Counted from the stretch's first letter, positions 6,407 through 36,349 are shown. The stretch is DNA of 38,292 bases from an uncultured Bacillales bacterium (GCA_946183335.1 CAMGZN010000001.1:1-38292), one strand, 5' to 3'. Numbers and translations are program-made. Notes: a model not told the origin generated them from the letters alone.

Positions 6407-7618
6407 CTATTCAGATTTATGAGTTTTTAAATATTGTTCCGCCATACCACCGACGGATGTTTCACGATAGTTCTTAGACATATCAAGTCCTGTACGAAGC
6501 ATTGTTTCTACAATGCTATCGAATGATACTTCGTGAGTATCGCTAGCATATTCAGCTAAACGACAAGAGGTAATCGCTCTTTGTGCCGCAACCGCATTTC
6601 TTTCGATACATGGGATTTGAACGTAGCCTAAAACTGGGTCGCAGGTGGAACCTAAGGAGTGTTCCATCGCAACTTCGGCGGCGCATTCAATTGTTTCTAA
6701 ATCAAGGCCTTTGAGATAAGCGAAAGCAGCAGCTGTCATTGAGCATGCTGAACCAATCTCGGCTTGACATCCAGCAACAGCACCAGAAATGGATCCGTTT
6801 TGCTTAATGACGTTGCCAATAACACCAGCAACTGCTAAAGCGTTAACCATTTTTTCGACTGAATTATGGTAATTATCGTAGCAATAACGCATTACTGCTG
6901 GAAGTGTGCCAGCTGCACCACAAGTTGGAGCAGTCACAACGAGATTGCCACTAGCGTTTTCTTCGCCAGTTGCAAAAGCATAAGCAATGATTAGGCGATA
7001 TGAACGAGCAATGCTTGTTTCACTTTCCGCTTTCGGCGTCAAAAACGAACGAGCGCGACGTTTGACGTGGAGTGGTCCAGGAAGTTCTCCTTCTTTACGT
7101 AAACCAGCATCAATTGTATCCATCATTTGGTTGAAAACTTTTTCTAAATATTTAAAGATTTCTTCACCTTCATAATGACGAACATAATCGACTAAATCCC
7201 ACCCATTTTCACCGCAAATCTTGGATATTTCAGCAAAATCCTTCTCTGGATAAACCTCTTCTTCATACTCTTCGACTTCACCTTCAATTTGGATTGCTCC
7301 ACCACCGGTTGAGATGACTTTTTTCTCGAGTGAACGACCATCACCAAAATGAAGAACAAACTTCATTGTGTTTGGATGTTCAACTGGCGTTTTAATATCG
7401 AAGTGAATTGCACAATCAACAGGTGCCAATGTTTGTTGAATTGTTTTATCAGTTAAGTGGCCACGGCCAGTTAACGCAAAAGAGCCATAAAGATAGACAT
7501 CATAACTCACAACATCAGGATAATTTTTACGAAAATACTTCGCTGCACGGTAAGGCGCAATCGAGTGTGATGAGCTTGGTCCATAACCAATACGATATAA
7601 ATATCTCAGAGATTTCAT
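6407..7618 (-). CDS. sdaA: L-serine ammonia-lyase (Fe-S dependent, single-chain form)
   Basis: The N-terminal YRIGYGPSSSHS matches the E. coli SdaA-type N-terminus (GIGPSSSHT). The C-terminal domain carries conserved Cys (TAPTCGAAG, GCQAEIG). Confidence 0.85.
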   Translation of the reverse strand: MKSLRYLYRIGYGPSSSHSIAPYRAAKYFRKNYPDVVSYDVYLYGSFALTGRGHLTDKTIQQTLAPVDCAIHFDIKTPVEHPNTMKFVLHFGDGRSLEKKVISTGGGAIQIEGEVEEYEEEVYPEKDFAEISKICGENGWDLVDYVRHYEGEEIFKYLEKVFNQMMDTIDAGLRKEGELPGPLHVKRRARSFLTPKAESETSIARSYRLIIAYAFATGEENASGNLVVTAPTCGAAGTLPAVMRYCYDNYHNSVEKMVNALAVAGVIGNVIKQNGSISGAVAGCQAEIGSACSMTAAAFAYLKGLDLETIECAAEVAMEHSLGSTCDPVLGYVQIPCIERNAVAAQRAITSCRLAEYASDTHEVSFDSIVETMLRTGLDMSKNYRETSVGGMAEQYLKTHKSE

Positions 7619-7700: not shown

Positions 7701-8711
7701 TTAACGGCGATCGCTTGGGAGCTTATCGTGAACAAATAATGCCATAACTGCTTTAGCAGTGTGGATTCTGTTCTCGGCTTCTTGATAAACCACCGATTGT
7801 GGTCCGTCGATAACCTCATCAACAACTTCGTTAACACGGTCGGCTGGAAGGGCGTGCATGTAACGGCATGTTGGTTTGGCTAAAGCCATTTTTTCTGGTG
7901 TACACTTCCATGCTTTCAGAGCAAGTAAGGCATCATCGACAACTGTGGTTGATTGGTTGGTGACCCAAGAACCCCAGTTCTTTGGGAAGACGACATCAGC
8001 ATCTTTATAAGCGGCATCCATGTCGTGAGTAATGGTTAATGAACCACCATTTTCAGCGGCATTTTTGCGGGCTTTTTCGATAACCCAGTCTGGTAAATCG
8101 TAACCTTCTGGATAAGCTAAGGTAACATCAATACCATAGCGTGGGAATAAGAGAACTTGAGAAACTGGAACTGAAATTGGTTTCTTGTGAGTTGTGGCCA
8201 TCGCCCAAATAACAGAAACTTTTAAGTTCTTGGTTTTTCCAAATTCATCTTCAATTGTCATTAAGTCCGCTAGAGCTTGCATTGGGTGATATAAATCACA
8301 TTGTAAGTTAATGATTGGGACTGTGGACCATTTAGCCATTTCGCGGATGTATTTGTTTCCTAAGCCCCAGTTACAATAACGGCAAGCGATCATGTGACCA
8401 AAGCTTGAAAGAATAACCGCGGTATCCTTGGCAGATTCACCATGAGCAATTTGCATCATGGATGTATCAAGGAATGTGGCGTGTCCGCCAAGTTGAGCCA
8501 TACCACTTTCGAAAGAGTTACGAGTTCTTGTTGATTGTTCAAAGAACATTAAGAAACCTGTTTTTCCTTCTAACCATGGGGTCTTTTCATTGGCGTAGAA
8601 TGCATCTTTAAAGTCATGAGAGACTTTGAGCATGTAGTCGATTTCTTCTTTAGTAAAATCTTCTAAAGTAATGAGATGTCGACCGGCAAATCTTGGTGCA
8701 ATTTTTTCCAT
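7701..8711 (-). CDS. ygeW: YgeW-type carbamoyltransferase (ATCase/OTCase superfamily)
   Basis: STRTR, QIAHGES, NLQCDLYHPMQALADL, DVTLAYPEGYDL, KDADVVFPKNW and YMHALPAD. These are the blocks I recall from E. coli YgeW, not from canonical OTC. AGGAG RBS. Confidence 0.85.
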   Translation of the reverse strand: MEKIAPRFAGRHLITLEDFTKEEIDYMLKVSHDFKDAFYANEKTPWLEGKTGFLMFFEQSTRTRNSFESGMAQLGGHATFLDTSMMQIAHGESAKDTAVILSSFGHMIACRYCNWGLGNKYIREMAKWSTVPIINLQCDLYHPMQALADLMTIEDEFGKTKNLKVSVIWAMATTHKKPISVPVSQVLLFPRYGIDVTLAYPEGYDLPDWVIEKARKNAAENGGSLTITHDMDAAYKDADVVFPKNWGSWVTNQSTTVVDDALLALKAWKCTPEKMALAKPTCRYMHALPADRVNEVVDEVIDGPQSVVYQEAENRIHTAKAVMALFVHDKLPSDRR

Positions 8712-8722: not shown

Positions 8723-9943
8723 TTATTTTTGCTTAGCGAGGTTTTCAAGGTAAAGACCTGGAATTGTCGCATAGAGAGCTGCACACACGACTAAGTCGTG
8801 TTTTCTGGTCTTTTCATTTGGGGCATGAGCTTCTTTTTCGTCGCCTGGACCAAAGCCAACGCAAGGAATACCAAAGCGTCCCATAATGGAAACACCATTA
8901 GTAGAGAATGTCCACTTATCAATGACTGGAGCTTTCTTGAAGAGTCCTTCATAACCTTGTTTTAAGGATTGAACATAAATGGATTCTTCTGGAATAACCC
9001 AGGTTGGGAAGTAACATTCTTGTTTATAAACAAGACCAGTATAAGCTGGACGTTCATAATCATACATTGAAACTTCAGCTTTCGCACGTTTCACACTTGG
9101 TAAATTTTCAATTTCCGCAATAGAAGTCTTATCGTTTTCTCCGACTGTTAAACGGCGGTCGAGAGAAATCCAGCAGCCATCAGCGACAGCACAACGGCTT
9201 GGAGACTTGTGGAAGATTTGGGAAATTGTGACTGTTCCTTTACCGAGGAATGGGTCATAGGCTAAACCAGTTTCATTGAGTTTTTCAATGTCTTTAATGA
9301 TGTCAGCCATTTTATAAATGGCGTTATCACCACGTTCTGGTGCACTACCATGGCAAGAGATACCACGAACGTTGACTTTGATTTCCATACGTCCACGGTG
9401 TCCACGATAGATTTGGCAGCTTGTTGGTTCAGTAGAAACAACAAATTCTGGTTTAATCTTGTCTTGCTCAATGATGTACTTCCAGCAAAGACCATCACAG
9501 TCTTCTTCTTGGACAGTACCGGTCACGAGTAAGGTGAAGTCATCTTCAAGGCCAAGATCTTTAATGATCTTACCAGCATAAACCATTGAGGCCATACCAC
9601 CTTCTTGGTCACTTGTTCCACGACCACCGATATAAGTTTCATCTTCGAAACCTTCATATGGATCAAATTTCCAGTTTTTAATTTCTCCGATACCGACTGT
9701 ATCGATGTGGGCATCCATGGCGATTAAGTGCTTACCATGGCCAATGTAACCTAAGACGTTGCCCATTGGGTCAATGTCGACTTTGTCGAAACCGACTTTG
9801 AGCATTTCTTCTTTAATACGAAGAACGACTTCTTTTTCGCCACATGACTCAGATGGAATCTTAACCATGTCGCGAAGGAATTTGGTCATATCTTTTTGAT
9901 ATGATTCGGCTTTTTTAAGGATTTCTTCAAATGAAACTTTCAT
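8723..9943 (-). CDS. ygeY: YgeY-type M20-family metallo-amidohydrolase (decarbamoylase/peptidase-like)
   Basis: Long near-identical blocks to E. coli YgeY as I recall it: [69 protein letters not shown] and [11 protein letters not shown]. Confidence 0.9.
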
Positions 9944-11313
9944 TATTTAATTTCCTTTCCGCGCATTTCTTTAATCTTCTTATCGTATTCGAAGACTTTG
10001 TTATATTCATTTTCCCAGAATTCTGGTTTTCTCATCGCGTCGAGGTATTCTTGTTTGTAACCGAATTTTAACCAGTCACGTTCTTTTTGCTTAAAGAGTT
10101 TTTCTTTGGCTTCTTTACCACGAGTATCTAACACATAACTTGTGTCAGCTCCCATAAAGACGTCATTGAACCAACGGTCTAAAACGTTATCAGTCACTTC
10201 AAGTTCACGTTCGTGTAGGTTTTCAATAACTGATGGATAGCGGTCGAATGAATCTGTAGCGATAGTCACAACGTTATCATCTGGTCCAAGTTTGAGGTAT
10301 TTTGCCATTTTGATGGCACCTAAGATGTTACAAATACCGGAAACACCGAAGAGGTTTTCCATTTCCTTAGCAACTTTGGCTGGAACACCATGTTTTTCAA
10401 GGATATTCGCACCTTCATGGATCACAGCTAAACCACGGACACAATCATCATCAATGATTTGAGTGATAAAGTCTGTTGTTAAAGCGTTATGAATGAGGGT
10501 AATCATCTTATCGCCGATACCTTCAATACGGTGCTGTCCTAAACCACCATTGGTGAGTGTTGAACATTCATGTGGTTCAAGAGCAACAACCTTACATTCT
10601 GGGAAGACTTTCTTAATTTGATCACCAGCAGCTAATGTACCAGCGGAACCAGGCGCTGAACAGAAACATGCGACACGACCATTACCAATACCTTTGACAG
10701 CTTCGACACAGGAATTACCTGTAACGTGTCTATGGAAACGATAGTTTGGTAAGAGTTCGAATTGAGCAAGAGTTCTGTTTTTTGGATTCTTCTTTAATTC
10801 GTAAGTTCTTTCGAGAGTAAGAATAACGTCTGATTCGGAACCTGGAGTTAAATCGAGTTTGGCTCCGTATTTTGAAATACGTTCATATCTTTCTTTCGAC
10901 ATGTTGTCTGGCATGATAACGATGGCGTCATACTTCATTAAGTTTGTAATGTAGCTAACACCGATACCGAAGTTGCCAGTTGATGGTCCAAGAATTGTGT
11001 GTTTTCCTGGAATAATTTCCCCATCCACACAACCTTCCATAAGTGTGGCATAAGCTGGACCCACTTTGTGGGAACCAGATGGGAAGTTCTTACCAAATAA
11101 GACAACGATGTTGGCGTCAACACCAGTTAAGGCTTTTGGTAAGACGATTTTGTTAACCTCATCTTTTTCGTTTTTCCAAGTAATGTTGAAGAGGTTAATT
11201 GGATCAAGTTCATTTTCTTTGATCGCTTTGAGTGCCTTAGCTCTCACTTCTGGGTCTTGGTGTGATGGATTAAGCATCTCATCATACGTTGGCCCAAACG
11301 GAATTTTTGACAT
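9943..11313 (-). CDS. PLP-dependent fold-type II enzyme (Trp-synthase-beta/cysteine-synthase superfamily; OrtB-like size)
   Basis: [12 protein letters not shown] (candidate PLP-lysine motif of the TGSHK type), [12 protein letters not shown] and SAPGSAGT (phosphate-binding loop). 456 aa. TAATG-fused to ygeY. Confidence 0.65.
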
Positions 11314-11314
11314 A

Positions 11315-12559
11315 CTAAATAGCTCCTTTTTCTTTCAAAAATTTATCCAATTCTTCAAGGTTTGGTTTCATCGGTTCAGGCATGGATACCGCCTTTTGAC
11401 CGTTGACTGGATCTTTTAGACCATTACCAGTCACAATGGTTGTCACAGTTTCACCAGGTTTAATAATTCCTTGTTGCACTGCTTTCTTAATGCCGGCTAT
11501 TGCAGCCACGCCAGCTGGTTCACCGAAGATGCCTTCGGTTCTTCCAAGTAGCGACATGGCTTTAATAATATCACTGTCTGGTACTGAAATCCAAGCCCCA
11601 TGCGATAATTTTATCGCATTTTGTGCTTTTACTGGGTTTCTTGGGATTCCGACAGCAATCGAATCGGCAATGGTGTTTTCATCAGCTTCTTTGAGTGGTT
11701 CGCCAGTCTCAGAAGCAATCACAAATGGAGCACATCCAGTTGATTGAACACCAAGGATTTTTGGAACTTTTTTAATCAAACCTAACTTAAAAAACTCCGC
11801 AAAACCCTTATAAACGCCACCAACTGTGCATCCGTCACCAACAGATACAGCGACCCAATCAGTTGGTTCAAAGTTCAGCTGTTCAGCAATTTCCATTGAG
11901 ACAGTTTTCTTTCCTTCGACCATGAATGGGTTGATAGCAGCATTACGGTTGTACCATCCGTATTTATCGATCGCGGCTTTAGAGAGTTGAAAAGCGGCTT
12001 TGTAGTCGCCATCAACTTTAACTAAAGTAGCGCCGTATAAACAAATTTGAGTTGCTTTACCAATTGGAGCACGTTTTGGAACAAAGATAACTGCGTTTAA
12101 TCCCATATGTGCCGCTTGGCAAGCACAGCTAGAGGCAGCGTTGCCTGTTGAAGAACACGCAATTGTTTTTGCGCCTGCTTCAATAGCTTTTAAAACAGCT
12201 ACTCCGCTAGCTCTATCTTTAGATGAACCACTTGGATTTAATCCGTCGTCTTTGACGTAGAGTTCTTTTACGCCAAGTTCTTTTTCAAGACGACGGGCTC
12301 GATAAAGTGGGGTCCATCCGACTCGTAACATTTCATCAATGTGGTCTTCTTGAATGCCCATAATTGGAGCATAACGCCACATCGAGTAGTTACGATTCTT
12401 TTCAAAATATTCACGGGTTAAAACTTTCTTTAATGCGTCGTAATCATAAACAACATCAAGAATGCCTTTTTCACCACAATGTGGACAAGTAAGAGAAACT
12501 TCTCCTTCTTTAAATTCGGCTCCACAAAGTGTGCATTTATAACCTTTAATGTAACTCAT
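11315..12559 (-). CDS. Threonine-synthase-family PLP enzyme with an N-terminal zinc ribbon
   Basis: CTLCG...CPHCG ribbon, NPSGSSKDR (PLP-lysine motif), SSTGNAASS and TGNGLKD. Specificity is unknown. Confidence 0.7.
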   Translation of the reverse strand: MSYIKGYKCTLCGAEFKEGEVSLTCPHCGEKGILDVVYDYDALKKVLTREYFEKNRNYSMWRYAPIMGIQEDHIDEMLRVGWTPLYRARRLEKELGVKELYVKDDGLNPSGSSKDRASGVAVLKAIEAGAKTIACSSTGNAASSCACQAAHMGLNAVIFVPKRAPIGKATQICLYGATLVKVDGDYKAAFQLSKAAIDKYGWYNRNAAINPFMVEGKKTVSMEIAEQLNFEPTDWVAVSVGDGCTVGGVYKGFAEFFKLGLIKKVPKILGVQSTGCAPFVIASETGEPLKEADENTIADSIAVGIPRNPVKAQNAIKLSHGAWISVPDSDIIKAMSLLGRTEGIFGEPAGVAAIAGIKKAVQQGIIKPGETVTTIVTGNGLKDPVNGQKAVSMPEPMKPNLEELDKFLKEKGAI

Positions 12560-13413
12560 TGTTTTGCACCTCCAACAATGTCGTCAATGAACTTATTAAA
12601 GATGTTCATCGCAACTGTTTGACGATATTCTTTATTACTTCTTTGGTCATCAATTGGAGCGATAATTTGTGCAAAATCACCAGCAATTTGTGGTTGTTTT
12701 GCTTTTAACTCTTCTAGTGTAAGACCAACAACTTTTGCTTCAAGTTCTTTGCTTCTTGCGGGACGAATTGAGACAGAACCAAAGCAACAAGCGAACTTGG
12801 TAACAACGTTCTTTTTCACTTCGTAATAACCAGCAAAGGAAATCTTGGAAATCGAGTCAGCTCGGCGTGAACCAACCTTAAACCAAAGTTCGCCAGTGTA
12901 TTCAATTTTTGGGAAAATAATTTCAGTAATTAATTCATTTGGATGACGATCGATTTTACGAACGCCAAGAACAAAATCTTTAGCATCGACTAAGCGAACT
13001 CCATCAACTGATTCAAGTTTCACTTTTGCATCAAGAAGAGCATCGATGACAATCGTGTCACCGGCTGGAGATGCATTAGCAATATTTCCCACTAGTGTGC
13101 AGAAATGACGAATATTTGTTGAAGCAACTTCACTAATCGCTTTTCTAAGTAAAGAAGGACAAAGTTTATGGTGTTCAATTTCATGCATTGTTGCGATTGC
13201 ACCAATGTGAACACCGTCTTTGTCTTCGTAGATATTTGCTAGTTCCTTAATATGTGAAACATATAAAACATCTTTATCAAATAAAGGAGCATAACCGGCA
13301 ACATTCTTTTTGATAACCATCATGTCGCTTCCACCGGCAACAATGTAGGCATCATGGTTAGCTAAAAAGTCGAGAGCTTCTTTTTTGGTATAAGCAATTT
13401 TCTTTTCTACCAT
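12556..13413 (-). CDS. Molybdenum hydroxylase (xanthine dehydrogenase family) FAD-binding subunit, set 1
   Basis: CO-dehydrogenase-flavoprotein-type N-terminus (YIVAGGSDMMV, TLVGNIANASPAGD). Overlaps the upstream 2Fe-2S subunit gene by 7 nt. Confidence 0.8.
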   Translation of the reverse strand: MVEKKIAYTKKEALDFLANHDAYIVAGGSDMMVIKKNVAGYAPLFDKDVLYVSHIKELANIYEDKDGVHIGAIATMHEIEHHKLCPSLLRKAISEVASTNIRHFCTLVGNIANASPAGDTIVIDALLDAKVKLESVDGVRLVDAKDFVLGVRKIDRHPNELITEIIFPKIEYTGELWFKVGSRRADSISKISFAGYYEVKKNVVTKFACCFGSVSIRPARSKELEAKVVGLTLEELKAKQPQIAGDFAQIIAPIDDQRSNKEYRQTVAMNIFNKFIDDIVGGAKQ

Positions 13414-13880
13414 AATCCAGCTCCTTTCTTACTGGCAATTTCCACCGCTTGAACAATAGCTTGATAGCCAGTGCAGCGGCATAAGTTACCACTCATATGA
13501 GCTCGAATCTCTTCCTCTGTTGGGTGAGGATTGTGAGATAAGAGTGATTGTGCAGCAATAATCATTCCTGGAGAGCAGAAGCCACATTGGGACCCACCAA
13601 CTTCAGCAAATGCTTTTTGTAAAACATCAAATTGTTTGGTTTCTTTGAAGCCTTCAATAGTAACAATCTCGTGACCTTCAACGTTGGCTAATGGAAGCAA
13701 GCAGCTATTCACCGAATAACCATCCATTAAAACAACACAGGCTCCACAAGAACCTTCGCCACAGCCTTCTTTAACTCCTTTTAAAGAGAAGTGATCACGG
13801 AGGACGTCGATTAAGCGCATACTTGGATCAAGCTCAACAGCAACATCTTTGCCGTTTAATTTAAACTTAACGCTTGTCAT
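13407..13880 (-). CDS. Molybdenum hydroxylase [2Fe-2S] subunit, set 1
   Basis: CGEGSCGACVV plus QCGFCSPG and NLCRCTGY, the two 2Fe-2S motifs of the XdhC/CoxS type. GGAGGTG RBS. Confidence 0.9.
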   Translation of the reverse strand: MTSVKFKLNGKDVAVELDPSMRLIDVLRDHFSLKGVKEGCGEGSCGACVVLMDGYSVNSCLLPLANVEGHEIVTIEGFKETKQFDVLQKAFAEVGGSQCGFCSPGMIIAAQSLLSHNPHPTEEEIRAHMSGNLCRCTGYQAIVQAVEIASKKGAGLW

Positions 13881-15966
13881 TGTTAATCACCTCCATGATG
13901 TATTCTGGTGTGGCTGGAATCTTATTCACTTTGTGACCGATTGCTTGTTCGATTGCAAGTGCAATCGCTGGAGCTCCACCAACAAGAGTTAATTCGCCCA
14001 TTCCTTTGGCGCCGTTAGCACCATAAATAAATGGGTTATCAATAAATGCTGTCTCCATTGGAGGAGCGTCTTCAAATGTTGGAATAATGTAGTCGGTTAA
14101 TGAACGATTACGGAATTTACCATCTTTAATTCCCATGTGCTCGAGATAACCGTAACCTAAACCTTGGAGTAATCCTCCATCAGCTTGGCCAACAGCAATA
14201 CGTTCATCAACAACTCGGCCAACATCGTAAGTTGACCAGCAATGATCAACTTTAATTTGGTAGGTTACTGGATCAAATGAGACTTCAACAACGTTGACAC
14301 CCCAAGAATAAGATGGGTAGGCATCGCCTTGCATTGTATCTTCATCCCAGTGGATATAACTTGGTCCGACATAACCTTCAACATGTTCTTGTCGAACTCC
14401 ACTCTTCCAGATTTTCTTTAATTGTTTAGCGCCTTTTTCCATGAGAAAACCAACAATAATAATTGTTCTTGAAGCCGCGGTTGGTCCGGAGTCAGGAGTA
14501 TGATCAGTATCAGCTGCTTCCATTGTGCATTGTTCAGCTGGTAAACCAAGTGTGTTTGACACAATACGTGCTAAGGTTGTACGGTTTCCTTGACCAAAGT
14601 CAGCACTTGAAGCATAAACATGGACATGATCATTCTCATCCTTAACGAGTTTGACTTTACCATTAATGATTGTTGATTCGCCTGAACCAGTAAATCCACA
14701 TCCGTGAAGGAATAAGGACATACCGATTCCTTTGTTAGATCCTGGTTTAGCGTACTCAACGACTTTACGTTTGTAGTCGGACATTTCCATGGCTTTGTCT
14801 AATAATTGAGGAAGAATAATTGGGTCATGGAACTTACCAGAATTTGTTGTGATATCTCCTTGTTTTGCAAGGTATTTCATTCTTAACTGTAATGGATCAA
14901 CTCCAAGTTCTTTAGCGACATGATGAATAAACATTTCCATCGCAAAGATTGTTTGTGGAGAGCCAAATCCACGGAACGCAGCAGTCGGAACGGTGTTTGT
15001 GCAATAAACATCACCAACCACATCTAAGTTTTCAAACACGTATGCGTTACAAGATGCAATAAGAGCACGTGATAAGACAACTCCAGAGCAGCCTTTGTAG
15101 GCACCACCATTAAGTTTGACACGAATCCTTAAACCAAGAATCTCGTTGTTCTTACCAATAAACGCTTCATATGTCGAAACTGATGGGTGACGTTTTGTTG
15201 TATAAGCAATATCTTCAAAACGCTCATAGCACATTTTTACTGGGCGATGAATTTTATTAACCGCCACAGCAAGTTGTGAACCAGTTAAGCTTGGATAGTG
15301 TTCTTTACCGCCAAATGCTCCACCAACAGCAGGTTGTTTCACACGAACTTTTTCTGGAGCAATACCAAGAGCTCGGGCAACAGCCTTTCTAATATAGAAC
15401 GGACATTGCATCGAACCAGTTAAATAGAACTTATCATCTTCATCTATATAACAGAGAATGCCTTGTGGTTCAATGTAGGCTTGTTCTTGATAACCAGTCT
15501 CATAAGTTTCTTTAATTGTTTTAACAGCGTTTTTCTCAGCCTTAGAAAAATCACCTTTTGTAAATTCTTTATGAATATACGAATTCACAAGATCGAAAAC
15601 TGGTTTTTCTTCTTCGTAAATAACCGAGATTTGACGGCATAATTTGTGCAAAACCTCTTTATTTTCTCCAACAAACAAACCAATCGATTCACCGACATAA
15701 TGAACTTCTTTGTCAGCAAAAATTGGCCAATCGGAGAAGATAATATTAACAACGTTTTCACCAGGAATATCTTTTGCTGAAATCCAATAATAACCTTTTG
15801 GAAGTTCAGGCAATTTGATTTCCTTTATCTTTCCTTTAGCAATTGTTGATCTCACGGTTTCAGCATAAAGCATTCCTGGTAACTCAAAGTCATCAGTGAA
15901 CTTTGCTTCTCCGCGAATCTTTTCGGGGAAGTCAATTTTTGGTGTACTTGACTTATAAAATTCCAT
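13867..15966 (-). CDS. Molybdenum hydroxylase molybdopterin-binding large subunit, set 1 (699 aa)
   Basis: Xanthine dehydrogenase/aldehyde oxidase family blocks: a/b-hammerhead N-terminus, VGGAFGGKE, AFRGFGSPQ and GMGELTLVGGAPAIA. Confidence 0.88.
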   Translation of the reverse strand: MEFYKSSTPKIDFPEKIRGEAKFTDDFELPGMLYAETVRSTIAKGKIKEIKLPELPKGYYWISAKDIPGENVVNIIFSDWPIFADKEVHYVGESIGLFVGENKEVLHKLCRQISVIYEEEKPVFDLVNSYIHKEFTKGDFSKAEKNAVKTIKETYETGYQEQAYIEPQGILCYIDEDDKFYLTGSMQCPFYIRKAVARALGIAPEKVRVKQPAVGGAFGGKEHYPSLTGSQLAVAVNKIHRPVKMCYERFEDIAYTTKRHPSVSTYEAFIGKNNEILGLRIRVKLNGGAYKGCSGVVLSRALIASCNAYVFENLDVVGDVYCTNTVPTAAFRGFGSPQTIFAMEMFIHHVAKELGVDPLQLRMKYLAKQGDITTNSGKFHDPIILPQLLDKAMEMSDYKRKVVEYAKPGSNKGIGMSLFLHGCGFTGSGESTIINGKVKLVKDENDHVHVYASSADFGQGNRTTLARIVSNTLGLPAEQCTMEAADTDHTPDSGPTAASRTIIIVGFLMEKGAKQLKKIWKSGVRQEHVEGYVGPSYIHWDEDTMQGDAYPSYSWGVNVVEVSFDPVTYQIKVDHCWSTYDVGRVVDERIAVGQADGGLLQGLGYGYLEHMGIKDGKFRNRSLTDYIIPTFEDAPPMETAFIDNPFIYGANGAKGMGELTLVGGAPAIALAIEQAIGHKVNKIPATPEYIMEVINNDKR

Positions 15967-17063
15967 TATTCTTCCACCTTTGTATATGTGAGAGCTTTAA
16001 CTGGACACTTGGAAACACAAAGACCACAGCGGAAACATTTCTCACTGTTGAATTTTGGTTTTCCATCCATCTCAATTGCGAAGTATGGACAAACTCTAGA
16101 ACATGTTCCACAACCTGTACATTTAGCTGCATCAAGTTTTGGAGTGTCTCCCATTCCATACATGGCATGATTTTCTAATTGAGTATCAATAACTTCTTGG
16201 ACTGATTTAAATCCATACTTTTCAAGAGCTGCTGGAAGGTCAGCAATAATCTTGGCATAAAGTTCTTTTCCTCTAAGCATCGCTGCCGAGAGCATTTGAA
16301 CACCGCTAGCGCCAGCGAGAAGGAATTCAATAACGTCGCTAGCTGAAGCAATTCCACCAACACCAATCACAGTCAGTGATGGTTCAGCTTGTTTAATTGT
16401 ATAAACAGTTGCTAGAGCAATGTTCTTAATATAAGGTCCACTGGTCCAAGCAAAACCTTTAGCGTTACCATAGATAATGCTACGGGAAGCAATGTCAATT
16501 TTCATTGAAGGACCAAGGGAGTTAACCGCCACAACACCATTAGCACCATTAGCTTTGATTGTGTGAGCAAAGCCTTCTGGATCTGGCATGTGAGCACTAA
16601 TTTTCATATAGAATGGTTTCTTGGTGTGTTTACGAATTGTGGCAACAGTTTCACCAAGCGCATTTAAGTCGTTTCCAACGTAGTGAGTAGAAACTTCAAA
16701 TGCATCAGCAAATTTATCAAGAAGAGGAATTAAAACTTCCATATCTTCTTTGGTATAACCAACTGAAATGATAAGAGGTTTACCAACTGACTTCTTTTTG
16801 TAATATGGTAAGAACTCATTAAGCCACTTTTCCTTAGTGTATTCAGTCCATAATTCACAGTTCATGATGTAATCACGATCACCATAAATGCATGGGTGCG
16901 GGATGTGGGCATCCTTTGTTGAGATTGTTTTTGAGACAATCGCACCAAGTCCAGCGACTTGTTCTAACCAGAGCATTTTCTCGGCGTCACCAACAAGTGG
17001 GCCGGCAGCTGGCATGAGTGGGTTTTCTAATTTTAACCCATCAAATTTTGTTGAAATATCCAT
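15966..17063 (-). CDS. Dihydroorotate/dihydropyrimidine dehydrogenase-family flavoprotein with C-terminal 2x[4Fe-4S] ferredoxin domain (PreA-like)
   Basis: N-terminal LKLENPLMPAAGP DHOD/DPD fold, GVGGIASASDV, and C-terminal CTGCGTCSRVCP and CFRCGLCVSKCP. I moved the start to ATG 17063 (AGGAGG 8 nt upstream), 2 nt after the ssnA-like stop. Confidence 0.8.
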   Translation of the reverse strand: MDISTKFDGLKLENPLMPAAGPLVGDAEKMLWLEQVAGLGAIVSKTISTKDAHIPHPCIYGDRDYIMNCELWTEYTKEKWLNEFLPYYKKKSVGKPLIISVGYTKEDMEVLIPLLDKFADAFEVSTHYVGNDLNALGETVATIRKHTKKPFYMKISAHMPDPEGFAHTIKANGANGVVAVNSLGPSMKIDIASRSIIYGNAKGFAWTSGPYIKNIALATVYTIKQAEPSLTVIGVGGIASASDVIEFLLAGASGVQMLSAAMLRGKELYAKIIADLPAALEKYGFKSVQEVIDTQLENHAMYGMGDTPKLDAAKCTGCGTCSRVCPYFAIEMDGKPKFNSEKCFRCGLCVSKCPVKALTYTKVEE

Positions 17064-17065
17064 CG

Positions 17066-18355
17066 TTATTCCTCCTTCACTTTGGACCATAAATTACTCG
17101 CGAATTTGCGAGCTTCAATAACTTCATTAATGAGCTTTTTGCTGGTAATTTTGTAATCTTTGACACGTTTTGTACCAGCGGTATAAACATCGCTTGGTTT
17201 TAAAGCTGGGAATAAGCCGTAGAAAAGATGACCTAGTGCATTAGATGCATCCATTTTTGTAAATGGAGTGTACTTCACACGCATAAAGTCTGCTTCATAA
17301 CCATTCTCAAATTTTCCAAGTTTTAAGCCTAAGCGATCTCCGACATATTTATAAGAGTTCTCAATCATTTGATGAACGTCTCCAAGGCCAATACCTAAAG
17401 GAGATTCGCTCTTCAAATGACCAGTATAAAGAACGTTGTTATATTCGTTAGCCATGTTAGAACTTAAACCATCGTTTCCAACCATAACTGGAATGCCATA
17501 ATCTAAATATTTGCGAACATTTGGAAGACCAACAGCATTATTCATATTGGATGTTGTGTTAACAACCATATAGCAGCCTCTATCCTTAATAATTTGTAGT
17601 TCCTCATCATTAAGATGAACTCCGTGAACAATTAAGGAATTTGGCACAAGTAAACCAAAGTCATCAAATCGTTTAATGATTGGCTTTTTGTATTTTTCTA
17701 TTGAATCTAATTCATCATCAAGTGCCTCGGCAACGTGAACATGTAGAGGAACTCCGTTTTGTGCTCTAGCAACTCTTTTAAGTGTTGAATTTGATAGCGA
17801 CATCGAGGCATGTAATCCAAATAATCCTTCACCTGGATAACGTTTGGCAAAGCTTTTGTTTTCTTTAATACAATCGCTAATGTTATAACGATCACTTGTT
17901 TCAAAACAGAAGATTCCATGCATTTTTAGTGGTCCGACAAAAGCCTTTCTTAAAGACTTCAAAGAACCAATAATCTCTCCGGATGCATGGTGGTCAATAA
18001 CTGATGTTACACCATTTAAAAGGAATTCTTCGCCAGCGCAAATTGCAGAATAGTAAGTTTCTTGGTTAACAAGTTTTGCATCAATCTTCCACCACATTTG
18101 ATCCAAGATTTGTTGGAAGTTTTTCGGATTAAACGGTAAAGCAAGACCTCTAGCAAAAATCGAATAGATGTGAGCGTGGGCACACACAAATGTTGGAAGC
18201 AGTAAATCGCCTTTATAATCTTCGACTGATTGATATTCGCCTTTTGGGAATTCGCTCATTGGGCCACATTTCACGACTTTGTCATCAAAAAGTAGATAAC
18301 CGCATTCAATGTAGTTTTTGTAGTCATAAATTCGAGCATTAATAATTGCTTTCAT
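17066..18355 (-). CDS. ssnA: SsnA-type amidohydrolase (cyclic amidohydrolase/aminohydrolase superfamily)
   Basis: HxH metal motif (VCAHAH), HVHVAE and VGNDG. The length and N-terminus resemble SsnA/chlorohydrolase-type enzymes. TAATG-fused to the hydantoinase gene. Confidence 0.75.
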   Translation of the reverse strand: MKAIINARIYDYKNYIECGYLLFDDKVVKCGPMSEFPKGEYQSVEDYKGDLLLPTFVCAHAHIYSIFARGLALPFNPKNFQQILDQMWWKIDAKLVNQETYYSAICAGEEFLLNGVTSVIDHHASGEIIGSLKSLRKAFVGPLKMHGIFCFETSDRYNISDCIKENKSFAKRYPGEGLFGLHASMSLSNSTLKRVARAQNGVPLHVHVAEALDDELDSIEKYKKPIIKRFDDFGLLVPNSLIVHGVHLNDEELQIIKDRGCYMVVNTTSNMNNAVGLPNVRKYLDYGIPVMVGNDGLSSNMANEYNNVLYTGHLKSESPLGIGLGDVHQMIENSYKYVGDRLGLKLGKFENGYEADFMRVKYTPFTKMDASNALGHLFYGLFPALKPSDVYTAGTKRVKDYKITSKKLINEVIEARKFASNLWSKVKEE

Positions 18356-19662
18356 TATTTAACCTCCCCACAATTTAAGTTCTTTCCCTGATGTGGAACA
18401 ATTTTTCGATTTTTTAATACAAATTGTCCACGGATAAGGACTGTTTCAAATTCACCAGAACCAAGAATTCCATCATAAATGGAGTAATCACAAGTTCCGT
18501 GATTTTCCTTTTCAAAATAGTCTTCTTTTTCTAAAAACACCGACAAATCTGCGTCCATTCCAACTTTGATTTCTCCTTTGGTTGGGAAATCTTGGATTTT
18601 TGCAGAATTTAGTGACATTTTGTCGATGATTTCATCTCCAAAACGTCGATACATTGTTGAGAAAGAATGTTCAATTCCTCCAACACCAAGAGGGAATCCT
18701 TTTAAAGTTGGATAATCCTTGTCTTTCTTCATAAATGAACAATGGTCGGTACCGATTGTTTCGACATCCTTATAGTAAGCAGTTAAAAGTTGTCTTTCTC
18801 GTTCACCTCTTAGTGGAGGGGCAAACGTAAATAGTTTTCCATTCTTGCCTTCTAAAACAGAGTTATTAAAGATGAAATATTGCGGACAGCTTTCAACAAA
18901 GAAATTCTTATTGAGAATGTCTGAAAACTGTTCTTTTAGAGCTTTTAATGTTTCACCACTTGAGCAATGAACCATGTAGAAGTTTCCGCCAGTCTCACGA
19001 ACCATCTTTGCAAGCTTTAAGGCTTCACTAGTTTCACTCATTGATGGACGGGAAACTGGTAAATCCTTAAATGTATATTCATCACGTAAATCAATTAGAT
19101 CATCGTTTTCAATATGTGCTTCGATTAAGACGTTATACTTCTTGGAAAGTTTAAGAAGTTCTTCAATATCTTTCTCATAAGTACGTCTTCCAGTGTCACT
19201 ATAAGTTGTGAACAACTTAATTGTTCTCATTCCAAGCTTAACAACGGTTTTGACGTACTCTTCTAAATCTCCGTTTGGCATTTTGATGCAAGCGTGCATG
19301 TGATAATCAACGATACACTTCTTCGCGAGTTCAAGACGTTCATAGAACGACTTTTCTAAATCTTTCGCATTACTTGTTGGATCAAGGAAATCAACAATTG
19401 TGGTTACACCGCCATAGGCAGCACAAACGGAACCAGTATAAAAGTCATCCACGGAAGTTAATCGACCGCAATTGAGTTCAAAATGAACATGTGGATCAAT
19501 TAATCCTGGTAGGACTTTTTTACCACTAGCATCAAGCACTTCTTTGGCTGCCGGTTCATCTTTTCCTATATAGGAAATTTTCTCACCTAAAACAGCCACA
19601 TTGACTTTCTGCCACTTGTGGTTAAACCAAACTAATCCGTTTTTAACCAGTAGATCATTCAT
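18355..19662 (-). CDS. hyuA: Hydantoinase/dihydropyrimidinase-family cyclic amidohydrolase (HyuA/YgeZ-like)
   Basis: GLIDPHVHF, IKLFTTY (candidate carboxylated Lys), EAHIEN and GTDHC. Confidence 0.8.
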   Translation of the reverse strand: MNDLLVKNGLVWFNHKWQKVNVAVLGEKISYIGKDEPAAKEVLDASGKKVLPGLIDPHVHFELNCGRLTSVDDFYTGSVCAAYGGVTTIVDFLDPTSNAKDLEKSFYERLELAKKCIVDYHMHACIKMPNGDLEEYVKTVVKLGMRTIKLFTTYSDTGRRTYEKDIEELLKLSKKYNVLIEAHIENDDLIDLRDEYTFKDLPVSRPSMSETSEALKLAKMVRETGGNFYMVHCSSGETLKALKEQFSDILNKNFFVESCPQYFIFNNSVLEGKNGKLFTFAPPLRGERERQLLTAYYKDVETIGTDHCSFMKKDKDYPTLKGFPLGVGGIEHSFSTMYRRFGDEIIDKMSLNSAKIQDFPTKGEIKVGMDADLSVFLEKEDYFEKENHGTCDYSIYDGILGSGEFETVLIRGQFVLKNRKIVPHQGKNLNCGEVK

Positions 19663-21977
19663 TATTTCTTTTCTTTAACCGCCTTAAAGATTGCTTCTGG
19701 AGTAATTGGCAAGTGATGGACTCTTACGCCAAACGCGTTATAAACAGCGTTACATAAAACAGCTGGTGGAGTATCAATACCAATTTCACCAACAGATTTC
19801 GCACCAAATGGTCCTGTTGGTTCATATGAATCAGCAAACTCGGTGACTAGTTCACCAATCTCGTGACGAGTTGGAATATGATAAACATCAAAGTTTGTTG
19901 TTAATAATTTACCTTTGTCATTATAAATGACTTCTTCAGATGAGGCCATACCATAGCCTTGGGCAATACCGCCTTCAACTTGGCCTTTGGCGAGCATTGG
20001 GTTAATCGTGGTACCACAGTCAGTAACTGTCACATACTTAATCATCTTGTACTCGAAAGTTTCAGTATCAAATTCAAATTCTCCAAAGGCCGCCATAAAT
20101 GGAGGTGGAGAAACATGGCCATGGAAGCTCTCCGTCACGGCAATTTGACGGGTGTCTTGGTTATAAAGACGATTGGTAGCTAAATCTTCTAAGGAAAGAG
20201 ATTTTTCACCAGATGTAAATATCTTACCGTCAAATTCGACGCTTCCCACTTTCACATTCATGTACTCTGCAGCTTCGCGAACAAGACGATCTCTCATCTT
20301 TTGAGCCGCATTCCATGCGGCATTACCACTAACATAGGTTGTGGAGGAAGCATAAGCACCACAGTCGTATGGAGTTAAGTCAGTATCAGACGAATAGATA
20401 ATGACTTTGTCAACCGTTGTGCCAAGTTCTTCAGCAACGATTTGGGAAATCATTGTGTCAGAACCTTGTCCAATATCTGTCGCACCAACAGTGACCATGT
20501 AAGAACCACCGTCGTTAAGTTTAATCGTACAGGAACCCATGTCTAAGAATGGAATTCCGGAACCTTGCATAGCAATCGCACAGCCAACGGCACGAACTTT
20601 GTGTGGTCCAACTTCTTTTCTTGGCCACTTCTTGTCCCATTCGATGAGTTCACGACCGCGCTTAATGCAATAAGGAAGCTTGCAGCTTTCCATAATCATC
20701 GCAGTACCTTCAGTACCTTCACCCATAATTTCAAAGATTGGGGAAGTTTCTTTTTCCTTCATTGAGTTAATCTCGCGAAATTTGATTGGATCCATGCCAA
20801 TCTTTTCAGCGAGTTCATCCATGATGGATTCAACGGCATAATTGCCTTGAATCGCACCATAACCACGATATGCACCAGCAGAGACGTGGTTCGTATAAAC
20901 AACTTGTCCACCGAATTTAACAGCCTTTGCTTTGTTGTACAAAGGTAAAACCTTTGAACCAACAATCATAAAAACAGTCAGAGCGTGCTCGCCATAGGCG
21001 CCTGTGTCACTTAAAGCACGGCAATCAATCGCTTGAATGACGCCATCTTTATTCGCACCAACTCGCAGTGTGATACGCATCGGGTGACGTGTATATGTAG
21101 AGCCAAATACCTCTTCACGGGTGAAGACGCATTTACTTGGCTTCTTTGTTCTTAATGTAACTAACGCACAAAACATTTCTCCATGGAAAGCTTGTTTTCC
21201 ACCAAAACCACCGCCAACGCGTGGTTTAACAACACGAATCTTTTCCACTGGAAGACCTATTGTCTTTGACATAATTCTTCTCATGTGGAATGGGGTTTGT
21301 GTTGTGGAGTAAATGACTAAACGGTTATGTTCGTCAAGACGAGCATTACATGTATGAGGCTCGATCATCGCGTGGGCTTGAGCCTGAGAATAAAATGTGT
21401 CTTCGACAACATATTCACATTTCTTTAATTCTTCTTCGACGTTTCCAACTTCCATCTCATAGGAGGCAGCAACGTTCTTCTTTGGATCAAAACCAATTGG
21501 GAACATTTCGTGAATCCCATCTTCTGGGTGGATGACAGATTTATTTTCAAAGGCTTGTTCAAAGTCGAGAACAGGTTCTAAGACTTCGTAATCAACTTTG
21601 ATTTTCTTCATTGCTTGAAGAGCAACTTCTTCACTAACGGCAGCTACTGCAGCGACTTCATCTCCAACATAACGAGCATATTCATCAAAGATGAACTTAT
21701 CGTGTGGAGATGGTTCTGGATAACCTTGTCCAGCACGTGTAAAGGAGACGTGTGGAACGTTGTCTTTTGTTAAGATACAAGCGACTCCAGGAACTTTTTC
21801 AGCTTCACTGACGTCGATCGATTTAATGCGGGCAAAAGCGTGTGGGCTTCTAAGAAGCTTCACAATTAAGGAGTTTTGATCAGCAAGGTCATCAGTATAG
21901 TATGAACGACCTTGCATGAGGCCTTTGCCATCAACACTTGGAGTAATGTTGTTAACAACACGGAAATTCTTTTTCAT
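19662..21977 (-). CDS. Molybdenum hydroxylase molybdopterin-binding large subunit, set 2 (771 aa; XdhD Mo-domain-like)
   Basis: VGGGFGGKQ, AYRGYGAIQ and KSVGEIGIDTPPAV. TAATG fusions at both ends. Confidence 0.88.
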   Translation of the reverse strand: MKKNFRVVNNITPSVDGKGLMQGRSYYTDDLADQNSLIVKLLRSPHAFARIKSIDVSEAEKVPGVACILTKDNVPHVSFTRAGQGYPEPSPHDKFIFDEYARYVGDEVAAVAAVSEEVALQAMKKIKVDYEVLEPVLDFEQAFENKSVIHPEDGIHEMFPIGFDPKKNVAASYEMEVGNVEEELKKCEYVVEDTFYSQAQAHAMIEPHTCNARLDEHNRLVIYSTTQTPFHMRRIMSKTIGLPVEKIRVVKPRVGGGFGGKQAFHGEMFCALVTLRTKKPSKCVFTREEVFGSTYTRHPMRITLRVGANKDGVIQAIDCRALSDTGAYGEHALTVFMIVGSKVLPLYNKAKAVKFGGQVVYTNHVSAGAYRGYGAIQGNYAVESIMDELAEKIGMDPIKFREINSMKEKETSPIFEIMGEGTEGTAMIMESCKLPYCIKRGRELIEWDKKWPRKEVGPHKVRAVGCAIAMQGSGIPFLDMGSCTIKLNDGGSYMVTVGATDIGQGSDTMISQIVAEELGTTVDKVIIYSSDTDLTPYDCGAYASSTTYVSGNAAWNAAQKMRDRLVREAAEYMNVKVGSVEFDGKIFTSGEKSLSLEDLATNRLYNQDTRQIAVTESFHGHVSPPPFMAAFGEFEFDTETFEYKMIKYVTVTDCGTTINPMLAKGQVEGGIAQGYGMASSEEVIYNDKGKLLTTNFDVYHIPTRHEIGELVTEFADSYEPTGPFGAKSVGEIGIDTPPAVLCNAVYNAFGVRVHHLPITPEAIFKAVKEKK

Positions 21978-22429
21978 TATTTCTTACCTCCAAGATATTT
22001 TTCAACAGCGTTGCCTTGGCTTTGTAAACCAGTGCAACGGCAGAGGTTACCAACCAAGTAATCATCAATTTCTTCACGAGTTGGGTGTGGGTTTTCTTCT
22101 TTTAAGGCGTGAACAACAAGCGCAAGTGCTGCTGAGCAGTATCCACATTGGTCGGCGCCTTCTTTAGCAAAATATTCGGAAAGCTCACCAGCTTCTTCTT
22201 GAATAGATTCGACAGTCATTACTTTTTTTCCTTCGATTGAAGCTGTTAAAACAGAACAAGATAGAGTTGGTTTTCCATTAACTAGAACTGTACAAGCTCC
22301 GCAAGCGGAGGCATTGCAACCTTTCTTGACCGATTTCACCCCATTGTTACGAAGTGAATCAAGGAGGTATTCTCCTGGTTGAATGTGATAAATCACATCT
22401 AGTCCATTTAAATTAAATTTGACTTCCAT
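21977..22429 (-). CDS. Molybdenum hydroxylase [2Fe-2S] subunit, set 2
   Basis: CNASACGACTV, QCGYCSAA and NLCRCTG. Confidence 0.88.
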   Translation of the reverse strand: MEVKFNLNGLDVIYHIQPGEYLLDSLRNNGVKSVKKGCNASACGACTVLVNGKPTLSCSVLTASIEGKKVMTVESIQEEAGELSEYFAKEGADQCGYCSAALALVVHALKEENPHPTREEIDDYLVGNLCRCTGLQSQGNAVEKYLGGKK

Positions 22430-23206
22430 TTATTTAACCTCCTCTAAACCACGTTTTAAGTAAACACGAGCTAAGTGAGAACGATATTCACTCTTAGCGG
22501 ACATTGAGTCGCCTATTTTAAGTTCTTGCATAGCAAGTTCAACAGCCTTCTCAATGTCTTTTCCACCTTCGTTAAGGTATTTCATCGCACCTTCGCAAAC
22601 ATAAGCGACTAATGGACGAGAACCAACAACAACTTTGTATTCTTTCGCTTTGGTAACACAGACATTTAAGATTGGATAATCAAGAGCGGTCATCTTCACT
22701 TTTTTAAAGAAAGATTTCGCTCCGCTCTTATAAATTCTAATTTCAGTTAAAATGCCATCGGCAAAGCCTGGTTTCTTAACATATTCATCTAAAGAAACAA
22801 CTGCCTCTGGATAGAAAACTAAATCAACTTTAAAACCAAGAAGGGCAGTAATGACATCTGAGAAACCATATTTTCCGTAAACGGAACCGCCAATTGTAGC
22901 ACAGTTTCTAAACGCTGGTCCCATGATTTGATGAACAGCCTCAGAGAGAACTCCACCACCTATCTTTTTGATGATTGGCGATGTTTCAAACTCTCTTTGA
23001 GTGACCATTGCGCCAACAGAGACATACTCTTTTTCTTCCTTGATTTGGTCTAAACCAAGTCGAGAAAGATCAATGAGTTTATCAACTTCACCATTGCCTT
23101 TCTTTAACCATAAACCACCACCAAGAACTTTGTTCTTAAGCGATGCTTTTTTGAGGGAGTAAGCTTCCTCTAATGAAGCTGCACGAACATATTCATTTAC
23201 TTTCAT
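22430..23206 (-). CDS. Molybdenum hydroxylase FAD-binding subunit, set 2 (YgfM-like size, 258 aa)
   Basis: FAD_binding_5-type N-terminus (KVLGGGLWLKKG, CATIGGSV). Abuts the 2Fe-2S gene with no gap. Confidence 0.75.
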   Translation of the reverse strand: MKVNEYVRAASLEEAYSLKKASLKNKVLGGGLWLKKGNGEVDKLIDLSRLGLDQIKEEKEYVSVGAMVTQREFETSPIIKKIGGGVLSEAVHQIMGPAFRNCATIGGSVYGKYGFSDVITALLGFKVDLVFYPEAVVSLDEYVKKPGFADGILTEIRIYKSGAKSFFKKVKMTALDYPILNVCVTKAKEYKVVVGSRPLVAYVCEGAMKYLNEGGKDIEKAVELAMQELKIGDSMSAKSEYRSHLARVYLKRGLEEVK

Positions 23207-23208: not shown

Positions 23209-23778
23209 TTACTTCCTTTCTAAAAGTTCACAGAACTTGTGATAATCACGAATCGTATCAATATCGAGACAAATAAATGGATCGTCAACAGGAACACGAA
23301 CTTTTTCCGATTCATATTTTTCTAAAAACTCATGCATGTTTGAGTTAATTGATGATTGTTTAATTTCATCCAAATATTGAGCAGACAAAAATAATGGGTG
23401 TCCATCATGTCCTTCAAATGTTGGAACGCGAATGCTTCCTGGAGCTCTTAAAAGAGCTTGATATGTGTCCTTGGAAACATTTGGTATGTCTCCAGGAATT
23501 AAAAGAATGTCTTCATTATGAGCCTCGGCAATTCCGGCTTTCATAGATGAGAACATTCCACAAGCAAAGTATTCATTAAAAACGATGTCGACATTGAGTG
23601 TTTTTAATACTGGCTCAAGTTCGTCGTGGTATCGACCAGTCACCACAACAATGCGGTCAACAAAAGGACGCATCGCTTCAATCGTGTAAGAGATAAGTGG
23701 TCGATGATTGATTTCTAGTAATAACTTATTGAGTTTGGCCCGGCTGGAATAACCGCCTGCAAGAATAATTCCTAGCAT
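23209..23778 (-). CDS. MobA/MocA-family molybdenum cofactor nucleotidyltransferase (YgfJ-like)
   Basis: MLGIILAGGYSSR nucleotide-binding start and PGDIP. I moved the start to ATG 23778, because the ORF-track N-terminal extension overlaps the predicted promoter. No clear SD. Confidence 0.75.
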   Translation of the reverse strand: MLGIILAGGYSSRAKLNKLLLEINHRPLISYTIEAMRPFVDRIVVVTGRYHDELEPVLKTLNVDIVFNEYFACGMFSSMKAGIAEAHNEDILLIPGDIPNVSKDTYQALLRAPGSIRVPTFEGHDGHPLFLSAQYLDEIKQSSINSNMHEFLEKYESEKVRVPVDDPFICLDIDTIRDYHKFCELLERK

Positions 23779-23803
23779 ACAATATTTCCAAAATATATAT
23801 AAT

Positions 23804-36348: not shown

Positions 36349-36349
36349 T

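Follow-up and report, generated by a model that had tools for sequence, protein, structure and literature searches.

In the reductive (2,8-dioxopurine) pathway of urate degradation, XdhD/YgfM reductively converts urate to 2,8-dioxopurine, which is dearomatized by YgfK or the clostridial UacX (PF01180) and ring-opened by SsnA and HyuA to 2,3-diureidopropionate (PMC12507026; bioRxiv 10.1101/2025.04.24.650524). One ureido group is then removed by YgeW (with the carbamate kinase YqeA and a yield of ATP) or UacY, YgeY takes off the remaining one to give 2,3-diaminopropionate (DAP), and YgeX (DpaL) converts DAP to pyruvate and ammonia (same sources). DAP builds up in ygeX mutants of C. sporogenes and E. 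coli (Liu et al. 2025). The E. coli cluster comprises xdhD-ygfM-ygfK-ssnA-hyuA-ygeW-yqeA-ygeY-ygeX, and Clostridioides difficile has the UacX/UacY variant (Li et al. 2025, PMC12507026; Liu et al. 2025, bioRxiv 10.1101/2025.04.24.650524). The literature disagrees on the order of ureido cleavage and has not settled the pathway's stereochemistry (commentary PMC12990295); DpaL/YgeX is reported to be equally active on both DAP isomers (PMC12507026). Here we analyze a 38,292-nt stretch of DNA from an uncultured Bacillales bacterium (GCA_946183335.1, CAMGZN010000001.1:1-38292; the window), in which two different pyridoxal 5'-phosphate (PLP) enzymes of fold type II, designated PLP1 and PLP2, occupy the slot of YgeX in an operon of this type.

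Results

On the minus strand of the window, 14 open reading frames (ORFs) follow one another from 23847 to 7701, each junction being an overlap or a gap of at most 11 nt. Judged by gene content, this is a 14-gene operon for a UacX-type variant of the reductive urate/purine degradation pathway, without YgeX. PLP2 (414 aa; 11315-12559; PF00291, 261 bits) and PLP1 (456 aa; 9943-11313; PF00291, 76 bits) are flanked by the gene for the FAD subunit of a molybdenum (Mo) hydroxylase and by that for a YgeY ortholog, an M20 hydrolase (8723-9943; TIGR03526, 691 bits against a cut-off of 321.5; 72% identity to E. coli YgeY). The FAD-subunit gene and PLP2 overlap by 4 nt (ATGA, 12556-12559), a 1-nt gap at 11314 separates PLP2 from PLP1 (TAG-T-ATG), and PLP1 and ygeY share 1 nt of stop and start codon (TAATG, 9943); the two PLP genes are thus translationally coupled. 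A preliminary description of this DNA had placed two PLP genes of these sizes and with these junctions in the YgeX position between ygeY and a Mo-hydroxylase; the ORFs and the PF00291 matches bear this out, and the motifs quoted for PLP1 and PLP2 (NPSGSSKDR and an N-terminal CxxC...CxxC for the latter) are present.

The absence of dpaL/ygeX, also claimed there, held in two kinds of search, which covered the whole window. Profile scoring did not find DpaL among the ORFs of at least 100 aa, and tblastn of the window in all frames, with YgeX of E. coli and of Desulfitobacterium as queries, gave no match other than to the region of PLP2 (26% identity). With the DpaL model NF006058 (cut-off, 276), PLP2 scored 60.8 bits and PLP1 23.8 bits, and PLP1 reached 21.6 bits with TIGR03528 (cut-off, 532). 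E. coli YgeX carries RFGLNAFKMLGG, the type of lysine motif named in the preliminary description. The pair resembles DpaL/YgeX (TIGR03528) in being of fold type II, in its slot beside YgeY and in the substrate pool that it presumably shares. It differs in consisting of two genes instead of one and in having neither the FGLNAFK lysine motif nor equivalents of Asp120 and Asp189: in the alignment, D120 of DpaL stands opposite Thr138 of PLP2, and D189 falls inside an insertion that PLP2 lacks. The unusual D/L promiscuity of DpaL reportedly involves two bases (Bisht et al. 2012), presumably D120 and D189.

To see how widely the arrangement occurs, a pattern derived from an alignment of seven PLP1 sequences was scanned against one genome per GTDB species. 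At least 600 stretches matched. In the best 80 loci (66 to 99% identity), the ORFs in the 10 kb to either side of PLP1 were labeled according to BLAST matches with proteins of the window and of E. coli. These loci come from rumen Bacilli, Erysipelotrichaceae, Izemoplasmatales, Acholeplasmataceae, Peptococcaceae, Desulfitobacterium, Desulfosporosinus, Moorella, Symbiobacterium, Negativicutes and Acidobacteriota. PLP2 was found in 72 of the 80 loci, adjoining PLP1 in 63, and YgeY (at least 55% identity) in 64, while an M20 gene adjoined PLP1 in 53. A carbamoyltransferase was present in 61 loci (58 of a short type described below and three canonical YgeW), a Mo-hydroxylase in 58 and UacX in 47. 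YgeX was detected in two loci only. In the reverse test, 80 metagenome loci anchored on YgeX contained neither PLP1 (at least 50% identity; 0/80) nor PLP2 (at least 45%; 0/80); a YgeY-family gene adjoined YgeX in 39 of them. Thus, PLP1/PLP2 and YgeX exclude each other nearly completely at the locus level. A survey of co-occurrence had been proposed as a check in the preliminary description, and its outcome agrees with the replacement of YgeX described there.

The pair holds the YgeX slot irrespective of the cluster type. It was found there in clusters with canonical YgeW (L022, L030 and L043), in those with the short carbamoyltransferase, and in UacY-type clusters (L034, L070, L074, L082 and L083), where the order is PLP2 - Amidohydro_3 - YgeY-family paralog - PLP1. 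A PLP1 relative of 35 to 37% identity from Cloacimonadota (L086) lies in a comparable cluster, with a PLP2-like gene, a YgfK-like gene (whose call overruns the end of the locus), YgeY, carbamate kinase, two Mo-hydroxylases and three paralogs of ornithine carbamoyltransferase (OTCase). Adenine deaminase was present in 26 of the PLP1 clusters and a CDA-type guanine deaminase in 20, which confirms their role in purine catabolism and agrees with the "xanthine-degradation loci" already noted in Izemoplasmatales (PMC8289736). Taken together, slot occupancy and locus-level exclusion form the pattern expected of a nonorthologous displacement of YgeX.

PLP2 has a threonine synthase (ThrC) fold. An N-terminal zinc ribbon (C9xxC12...C25xxC28) precedes the lysine motif NPSGSSKDR, in which K114 (GSSKDR) is the catalytic Lys. 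The best PDB sequence match was ThrC 2zsj (E = 6.5e-63), and the AlphaFold2 model (predicted local distance difference test score [pLDDT], 79; predicted template modeling score, 0.85) retrieved ThrC structures as the top Foldseek matches, followed by the cysteate synthase CapA2, threonine deaminases and serine racemases. Compared to solved ThrCs (1UIM/1V7C, 2ZSJ, 2D1F and 6CGQ), PLP2 has the same fold (Foldseek template modeling score of approximately 0.8), is 32 to 36% identical where the sequences align, and likewise contains the GSxKDR motif of the lysine and an S-T-G-N loop, but it differs in the zinc ribbon, in its location in a purine operon and in family-wide substitutions in the pocket. 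Among the ThrC models, TIGR00260 was passed (210.7 against 167.1), whereas NF006050, the specific model that matched most closely, was not (275 against 303) and the others also scored below their cut-offs. Close relatives of PLP2 are labeled "threonine synthase" in public annotation.

The pocket substitutions were determined by aligning 73 PLP2 orthologs found in other genomes to four ThrCs of known structure, each representing a different phylum (Thermus thermophilus numbering). Five positions that are invariant in the solved ThrCs were changed in 72 or 73 of the 73 orthologs: T88 to Ala (73/73), N154 to Ala or Cys, S155 to Ala (72/73), R160 to Leu or Met (73/73) and N188 to Asp (73/73), the last of these in a loop altered from GNAGN to GDGC[T/S]. 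In addition, R/K242 is replaced by Ala or Ser and F134 by Tyr. The orthologs retain the motif of the PLP lysine as well as the S-T-G-N loop. In the window PLP2, the residues at the five positions are A141, A207, A208, M213 and D242, and the distant PLP2-like homolog from Cloacimonadota has the identical signature. Because these ThrC-invariant positions are replaced across the orthologs, PLP2 is, as far as active-site residues can tell, a derivative of threonine synthase and not a threonine synthase. In T. thermophilus structures with a substrate analogue, the five residues reportedly contact the phosphate of O-phosphohomoserine. If this assignment is right, the PLP2 pocket would have changed from anion binding to a hydrophobic one with a single carboxylate, and would suit a cationic amino group or a neutral ureido group.

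PLP1 is assigned to a different branch of fold type II. Its catalytic Lys is K83 (GSHKVG), and its Asn loop is S111-T-G-N-F. PDB sequence matches were to CysK (at approximately 1e-29) and CBS, and Foldseek matches were to CysK and beta-cyanoalanine synthase (CAS). All family cut-offs were missed by far (cysK, 134 against 351; cysKM, 132.6 against 344; cysM, 85 against 394), and the scores with the CysM, CBS and SbnA models were below that with cysK. K83, S111-T-G-N114, G222-S-A-G-T226 and S325 show at least 97% conservation across 81 PLP1 orthologs; judging from the alignment, they correspond in CysK to the catalytic lysine, the asparagine loop, the glycine-rich phosphate loop and the serine at the pyridine nitrogen. 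In these features and in its fold, PLP1 resembles CysK, CAS, Fn1055 and DcsD, but it is longer (456 aa compared to approximately 310 aa), scores far below the family cut-offs, maintains 66 to 99% identity across phyla and is found in a purine-cluster context. The additional length lies outside the PALP domain, in an N-terminal (approximately residues 1 to 60) and a C-terminal extension (approximately 370 to 456) of about 60 and 90 residues; at 192 of the 456 positions, many of them within the two extensions, conservation among the 81 orthologs is at least 97%. We conclude that PLP1 is, by sequence and fold comparison, a CysK/CAS-type enzyme of an uncharacterized family.

This placement departs from the preliminary description, in which PLP1 was called similar to tryptophan synthase beta or OrtB. 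Among the 20 NCBIfam matches of PLP1 (E ≤ 0.001) there was no TrpB and no OrtB model, the latter being a comparison at the model level only, and no TrpB was among the 60 best PDB matches. Likewise, the two enzymes are not strictly "unrelated," since both belong to fold type II. In a representative library of 1.84 billion proteins, 121 clusters contained PLP1 relatives at E ≤ 1e-30; their source names are generic, and public labels include "cysteine synthase" and PLP-dependent enzyme. Long representatives, inspected for gene fusions as Rosetta-stone evidence, were a duplicated CysK, a chimera with an ABC ATPase and plain PALP proteins and were uninformative. PLP1-family proteins of 37 to 40% identity occur in the anaerobic metamonads Carpediemonas membranifera and Aduncisulcus paluster (P0273, P0259 and P0434), which suggests lateral transfer into eukaryotes. 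Finally, a relative of 45% identity (L085, 8644-11395) lies outside any purine cluster and forms a divergent pair with a PRK08197-type "threonine synthase" (575 bits), so that a long CysK-like gene is combined with a ThrC-like one in a nonpurine context as well.

The remaining genes of the operon correspond to the earlier steps of the pathway. The first gene encodes MocA (23209-23847). It is followed by a first Mo-hydroxylase set (19662-23206), consisting of a YgfM-like FAD subunit (22430-23206; 28% identity to YgfM), a 2Fe-2S subunit (21977-22429) and a Mo subunit of 771 aa (19662-21977; 36% identity to XdhD over 802 aa). Two amidohydrolases, candidates for ring opening whose best families were D-hydantoinase and SsnA, come next, one hydantoinase/dihydropyrimidinase-like (18355-19662; TIGR02033, 226 against a cut-off of 393; 27% identity to HyuA) and one SsnA-like (17066-18355; NF005540, 319 against 444; 30% identity to SsnA). 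The counterpart of YgfK is a UacX-like reductase (15966-17090) with PF01180 (DHO_dh fold) and two 4Fe-4S (Fer4) domains, its role being assigned according to PMC12507026. A second complete Mo-hydroxylase set (12556-15966) comprises a Mo subunit of 699 aa (13867-15966), a 2Fe-2S subunit (13407-13880) and the FAD subunit preceding PLP2 (12556-13413). The 771-aa, XdhD/YgfM-like set is confined to rumen Bacilli loci, whereas the 699-aa set is kept with the PLP pair in other phyla.

Downstream of ygeY, the last operon gene (7701-8711) encodes a short carbamoyltransferase of 336 aa (OTCace_N and OTCace), the counterpart of YgeW. A terminator-like hairpin with a T-run (7678-7655) lies 3' of its stop codon and ends the operon. 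In the preliminary description this gene was called ygeW, a label that does not fit: the protein is 36% identical to YgeW of the E. coli K-12 reference (L004) and scored 183 to 194 with YgeW models (cut-offs, 453 to 500), compared to 260.8 with the OTC model (cut-off, 280.85). By these scores, it is of an OTCase-like type and not a canonical YgeW. The short type was present in 58/80 PLP1 loci and in 0/80 YgeX loci, which carry canonical YgeW only; it might cleave a different ureido group. The three OTCase-like paralogs of the Cloacimonadota locus stand in tandem (L086, 3317-6866), beside YgeY and carbamate kinase. The window gene for carbamate kinase, the YqeA counterpart, is on the plus strand, divergent from the operon (23902-24843; TIGR00746, 386 bits against 358; 52% identity to YqeA).

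Overall, the window shares with the reductive urate cluster an XdhD-type Mo-hydroxylase with a YgfM-like FAD subunit, a UacX-type reductase, YgeY and a carbamoyltransferase with carbamate kinase. Its SsnA-like and hydantoinase-like amidohydrolases are candidate counterparts of SsnA and HyuA, at 27 to 30% identity and below the family cut-offs. The window differs in having two PLP enzymes in place of YgeX, a short OTCase-like carbamoyltransferase instead of the knotted YgeW, and a second Mo-hydroxylase set. RidA, serine hydroxymethyltransferase (SHMT), UacY and purine deaminases were looked for in the window and not found.

Discussion

Gene content, operon structure, family placement, the active-site substitutions of PLP2 and the locus-level exclusion of YgeX are direct observations. 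Given these, the PLP pair very probably completes the pathway, using a C3 diamino or ureido acid delivered by the carbamoyltransferase and YgeY. The explanation that we favor, and hold to be about evenly poised between right and wrong, is a nonorthologous displacement of YgeX/DpaL by two cotranscribed PLP enzymes of fold type II.

In the proposed sequence of steps, the Mo-hydroxylases, the UacX-type reductase and the SsnA-like and hydantoinase-like enzymes would lead to 2,3-diureidopropionate. The short carbamoyltransferase with carbamate kinase would then act with a yield of ATP, followed by YgeY; DAP is the expected product of the latter because it is 72% identical to E. coli YgeY. PLP1 and PLP2 together would convert DAP to a central metabolite and ammonia, the product being pyruvate, formed by direct beta-elimination or via serine. 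PLP1, the more conserved member of the pair and usually the one abutting YgeY, has a CysK-type, aminoacrylate-forming scaffold and might tentatively be regarded as the enzyme of beta-elimination or beta-replacement. For PLP2, action on the other enantiomer or isomer, or inversion at C2, is conceivable. Two stereospecific enzymes would then cover what the D/L-promiscuous DpaL does alone. RidA quenches 2-aminoacrylate. Its gene lies directly upstream of PLP2 in L034 (7040-7429), a locus without YgeX, which points to an aminoacrylate-releasing enzyme.

The pair may simply catalyze the net reaction of DpaL itself; the differing chemistry proposed in the preliminary description is conjectural. It seems unlikely that two new activities end the pathway by non-DpaL chemistry. 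Such chemistry could be a stereoconvergent two-enzyme route, in which one enzyme inverts C2 or takes the D-form and the other takes the L-form, or a beta-replacement by water, in which the 3-amino or 3-ureido group is exchanged to give serine, to be passed on to serine dehydratase or SHMT.

Several observations weigh against displacement. A single enzyme suffices for DAP deamination, and we found no reason for two. In Desulfitobacterium (L050), the cluster reads SsnA-PLP2-PLP1-RidA-YgeX-regulator-YgeY-carbamoyltransferase-YqeA-HyuA, with a true YgeX (51% identity; K77/D120/D189 motifs intact) and RidA at 11564-11941. In Desulfosporosinus (L051), the order is PLP1-RidA-YgeX, with the DpaL motifs retained, RidA at 11479-11904 and no PLP2 in view. 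Since PLP1 and a true YgeX stand together in these two loci, their functions need not be identical. Six PLP1 loci are without PLP2 within 10 kb. Moreover, the structure model of PLP1 is weak across the active-site (small catalytic) domain, with pLDDT below 50 at residues 78 to 187, and a dpaL gene could sit elsewhere in these genomes, beyond the 10-kb flanks viewed. The replacement of DpaL proposed in the preliminary description stands as a near-complete exclusion between loci, with exceptions in Desulfitobacterium and Desulfosporosinus, where PLP1 and YgeX share one cluster.

These two loci also count in favor of a rather unlikely alternative, that the pair is an accessory to the pathway instead of a replacement. 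It would add a step not needed in YgeX clusters, for example by diverting DAP or albizziin to serine, glycine or cysteine, racemizing an intermediate or detoxifying a side product, and DAP would be deaminated by a dpaL product encoded elsewhere or by another enzyme. CysK-family enzymes typically catalyze beta-replacement, and Fn1055, a Foldseek match of PLP1, makes serine from cysteine. SHMT is encoded inside the L051 cluster (18806-20062) and by the first gene of the L052 (2577-3812) and L053 (64-1368) clusters, in three Bacillota genomes, and a gene for L-serine dehydratase borders on the operon both in the window and in five related loci; these neighbors hint at serine as a possible intermediate. 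On the other hand, 78 of the 80 PLP1 loci lack YgeX despite YgeY and the carbamoyltransferase, and the pair holds the same position beside YgeY or an M20 paralog. Furthermore, an add-on function would not be expected to be excluded from YgeX clusters, as it is in all 80 of them.

The dehydratase itself, which could be a downstream partner but is a doubtful member, was left out of the pathway. The preliminary description had correctly placed a single-chain L-serine dehydratase gene directly past the terminator (Fe-S type; minus strand, 6407-7618; TIGR00720, 352 bits against a cut-off of 345). However, the gene adjoins the PLP operon in only 6/80 loci, all from rumen Bacilli. The link may be plain synteny, because it is always accompanied by cysS and in four of the six loci by rlmB.

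An earlier point of action for the pair, with a mono-ureido intermediate and not free DAP as the substrate, is quite improbable. PLP2 could, for instance, bind albizziin (2-amino-3-ureidopropionate) and eliminate urea or carbamate, or epimerize it before YgeY acts. Albizziin has a ureido chain similar in length to the side chain of phosphohomoserine, and in PLP2 the pocket presumed to have once bound phosphate is neutral and contains an invariant Asp, which would be a typical ureido ligand. Also compatible with such a role are the covariation of the carbamoyltransferase type with the PLP pair and the dispute over the order of ureido cleavage (PMC12990295). Nevertheless, YgeY (approximately 70% identical to that of E. 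coli), the carbamoyltransferase and carbamate kinase are kept, so that both ureido groups are seemingly removed as usual, and the clusters are without urease.

A role of the pair in cofactor maturation, by supplying the Mo-hydroxylases with sulfur or selenium through a cysteine- or selenocysteine-type intermediate, appears very improbable. CysK-type enzymes handle sulfide and selenide, and genes resembling XdhA and YqeC occur in the vicinity of PLP1 in L034 and in loci of the Moorella type. Yet YgeX clusters need the same cofactors and never carry the pair (0/80), which tracks YgeY and the carbamoyltransferase rather than maturation genes; the window is without yqeB, yqeC and selD. Least credible of all is that housekeeping thrC and cysK ended up in the operon by chance: the TIGR00260 score and the public labels "threonine synthase" and "cysteine synthase" would fit, but the five replaced positions of PLP2, the low cysK score and two extra segments of PLP1, and the confinement of both genes to purine clusters across phyla lead us to reject ordinary orthologs.

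The variant is widespread. The two-PLP-enzyme arrangement is common to many anaerobe species (at least 600 stretches matched in genomes representing species, and the best 80 belong to Bacillota, Mycoplasmatota and Acidobacteriota), and it is not mentioned in the literature on the pathway that we searched. The reductive urate pathway was not elucidated until 2025, and it now serves in surveying and engineering urate-degrading gut bacteria. The "YgeX" criterion of Li et al., PF00291 within 15 genes of SsnA (Fig. 3g in PMC12507026), cannot separate YgeX from PLP1/PLP2, and such surveys would score the variant as YgeX positive, while those requiring a YgeX ortholog would miss it. Two uncharacterized families gain DAP or its ureido precursors as candidate substrates, and a two-enzyme solution may bear on the question of its stereochemistry (PMC12990295). 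If the serine route were true, the C3 unit would enter metabolism as serine or as glycine plus a one-carbon unit, not directly as pyruvate, and the pattern scan suggests that this may apply in hundreds of environmental and rumen anaerobe species.

Other features of the loci

The PLP1 gene of the window is 99% identical to that of a "Bacilli bacterium" metagenome-assembled genome from goat reticulum (L005). In a Peptococcaceae locus without PLP2 (L041), a gene of the Asp/Glu/hydantoin racemase superfamily (Amdase; 11399-12070) lies directly 3' of PLP1, a single case.

Directly upstream of the 14-gene operon and its divergent carbamate kinase gene, with which it converges at its end, the window contains a gdhA - DUF1015 - serC - PGDH-like operon (minus strand, 24915-29714), that is, glutamate dehydrogenase and phosphoserine-pathway genes. 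Farther on, Rnf-type genes (plus strand, 33370-37683; RnfC-like, RnfD-like and two Rnf-Nqr membrane subunits) could be a source of reduced ferredoxin for the UacX-type reductase and the hydroxylases.

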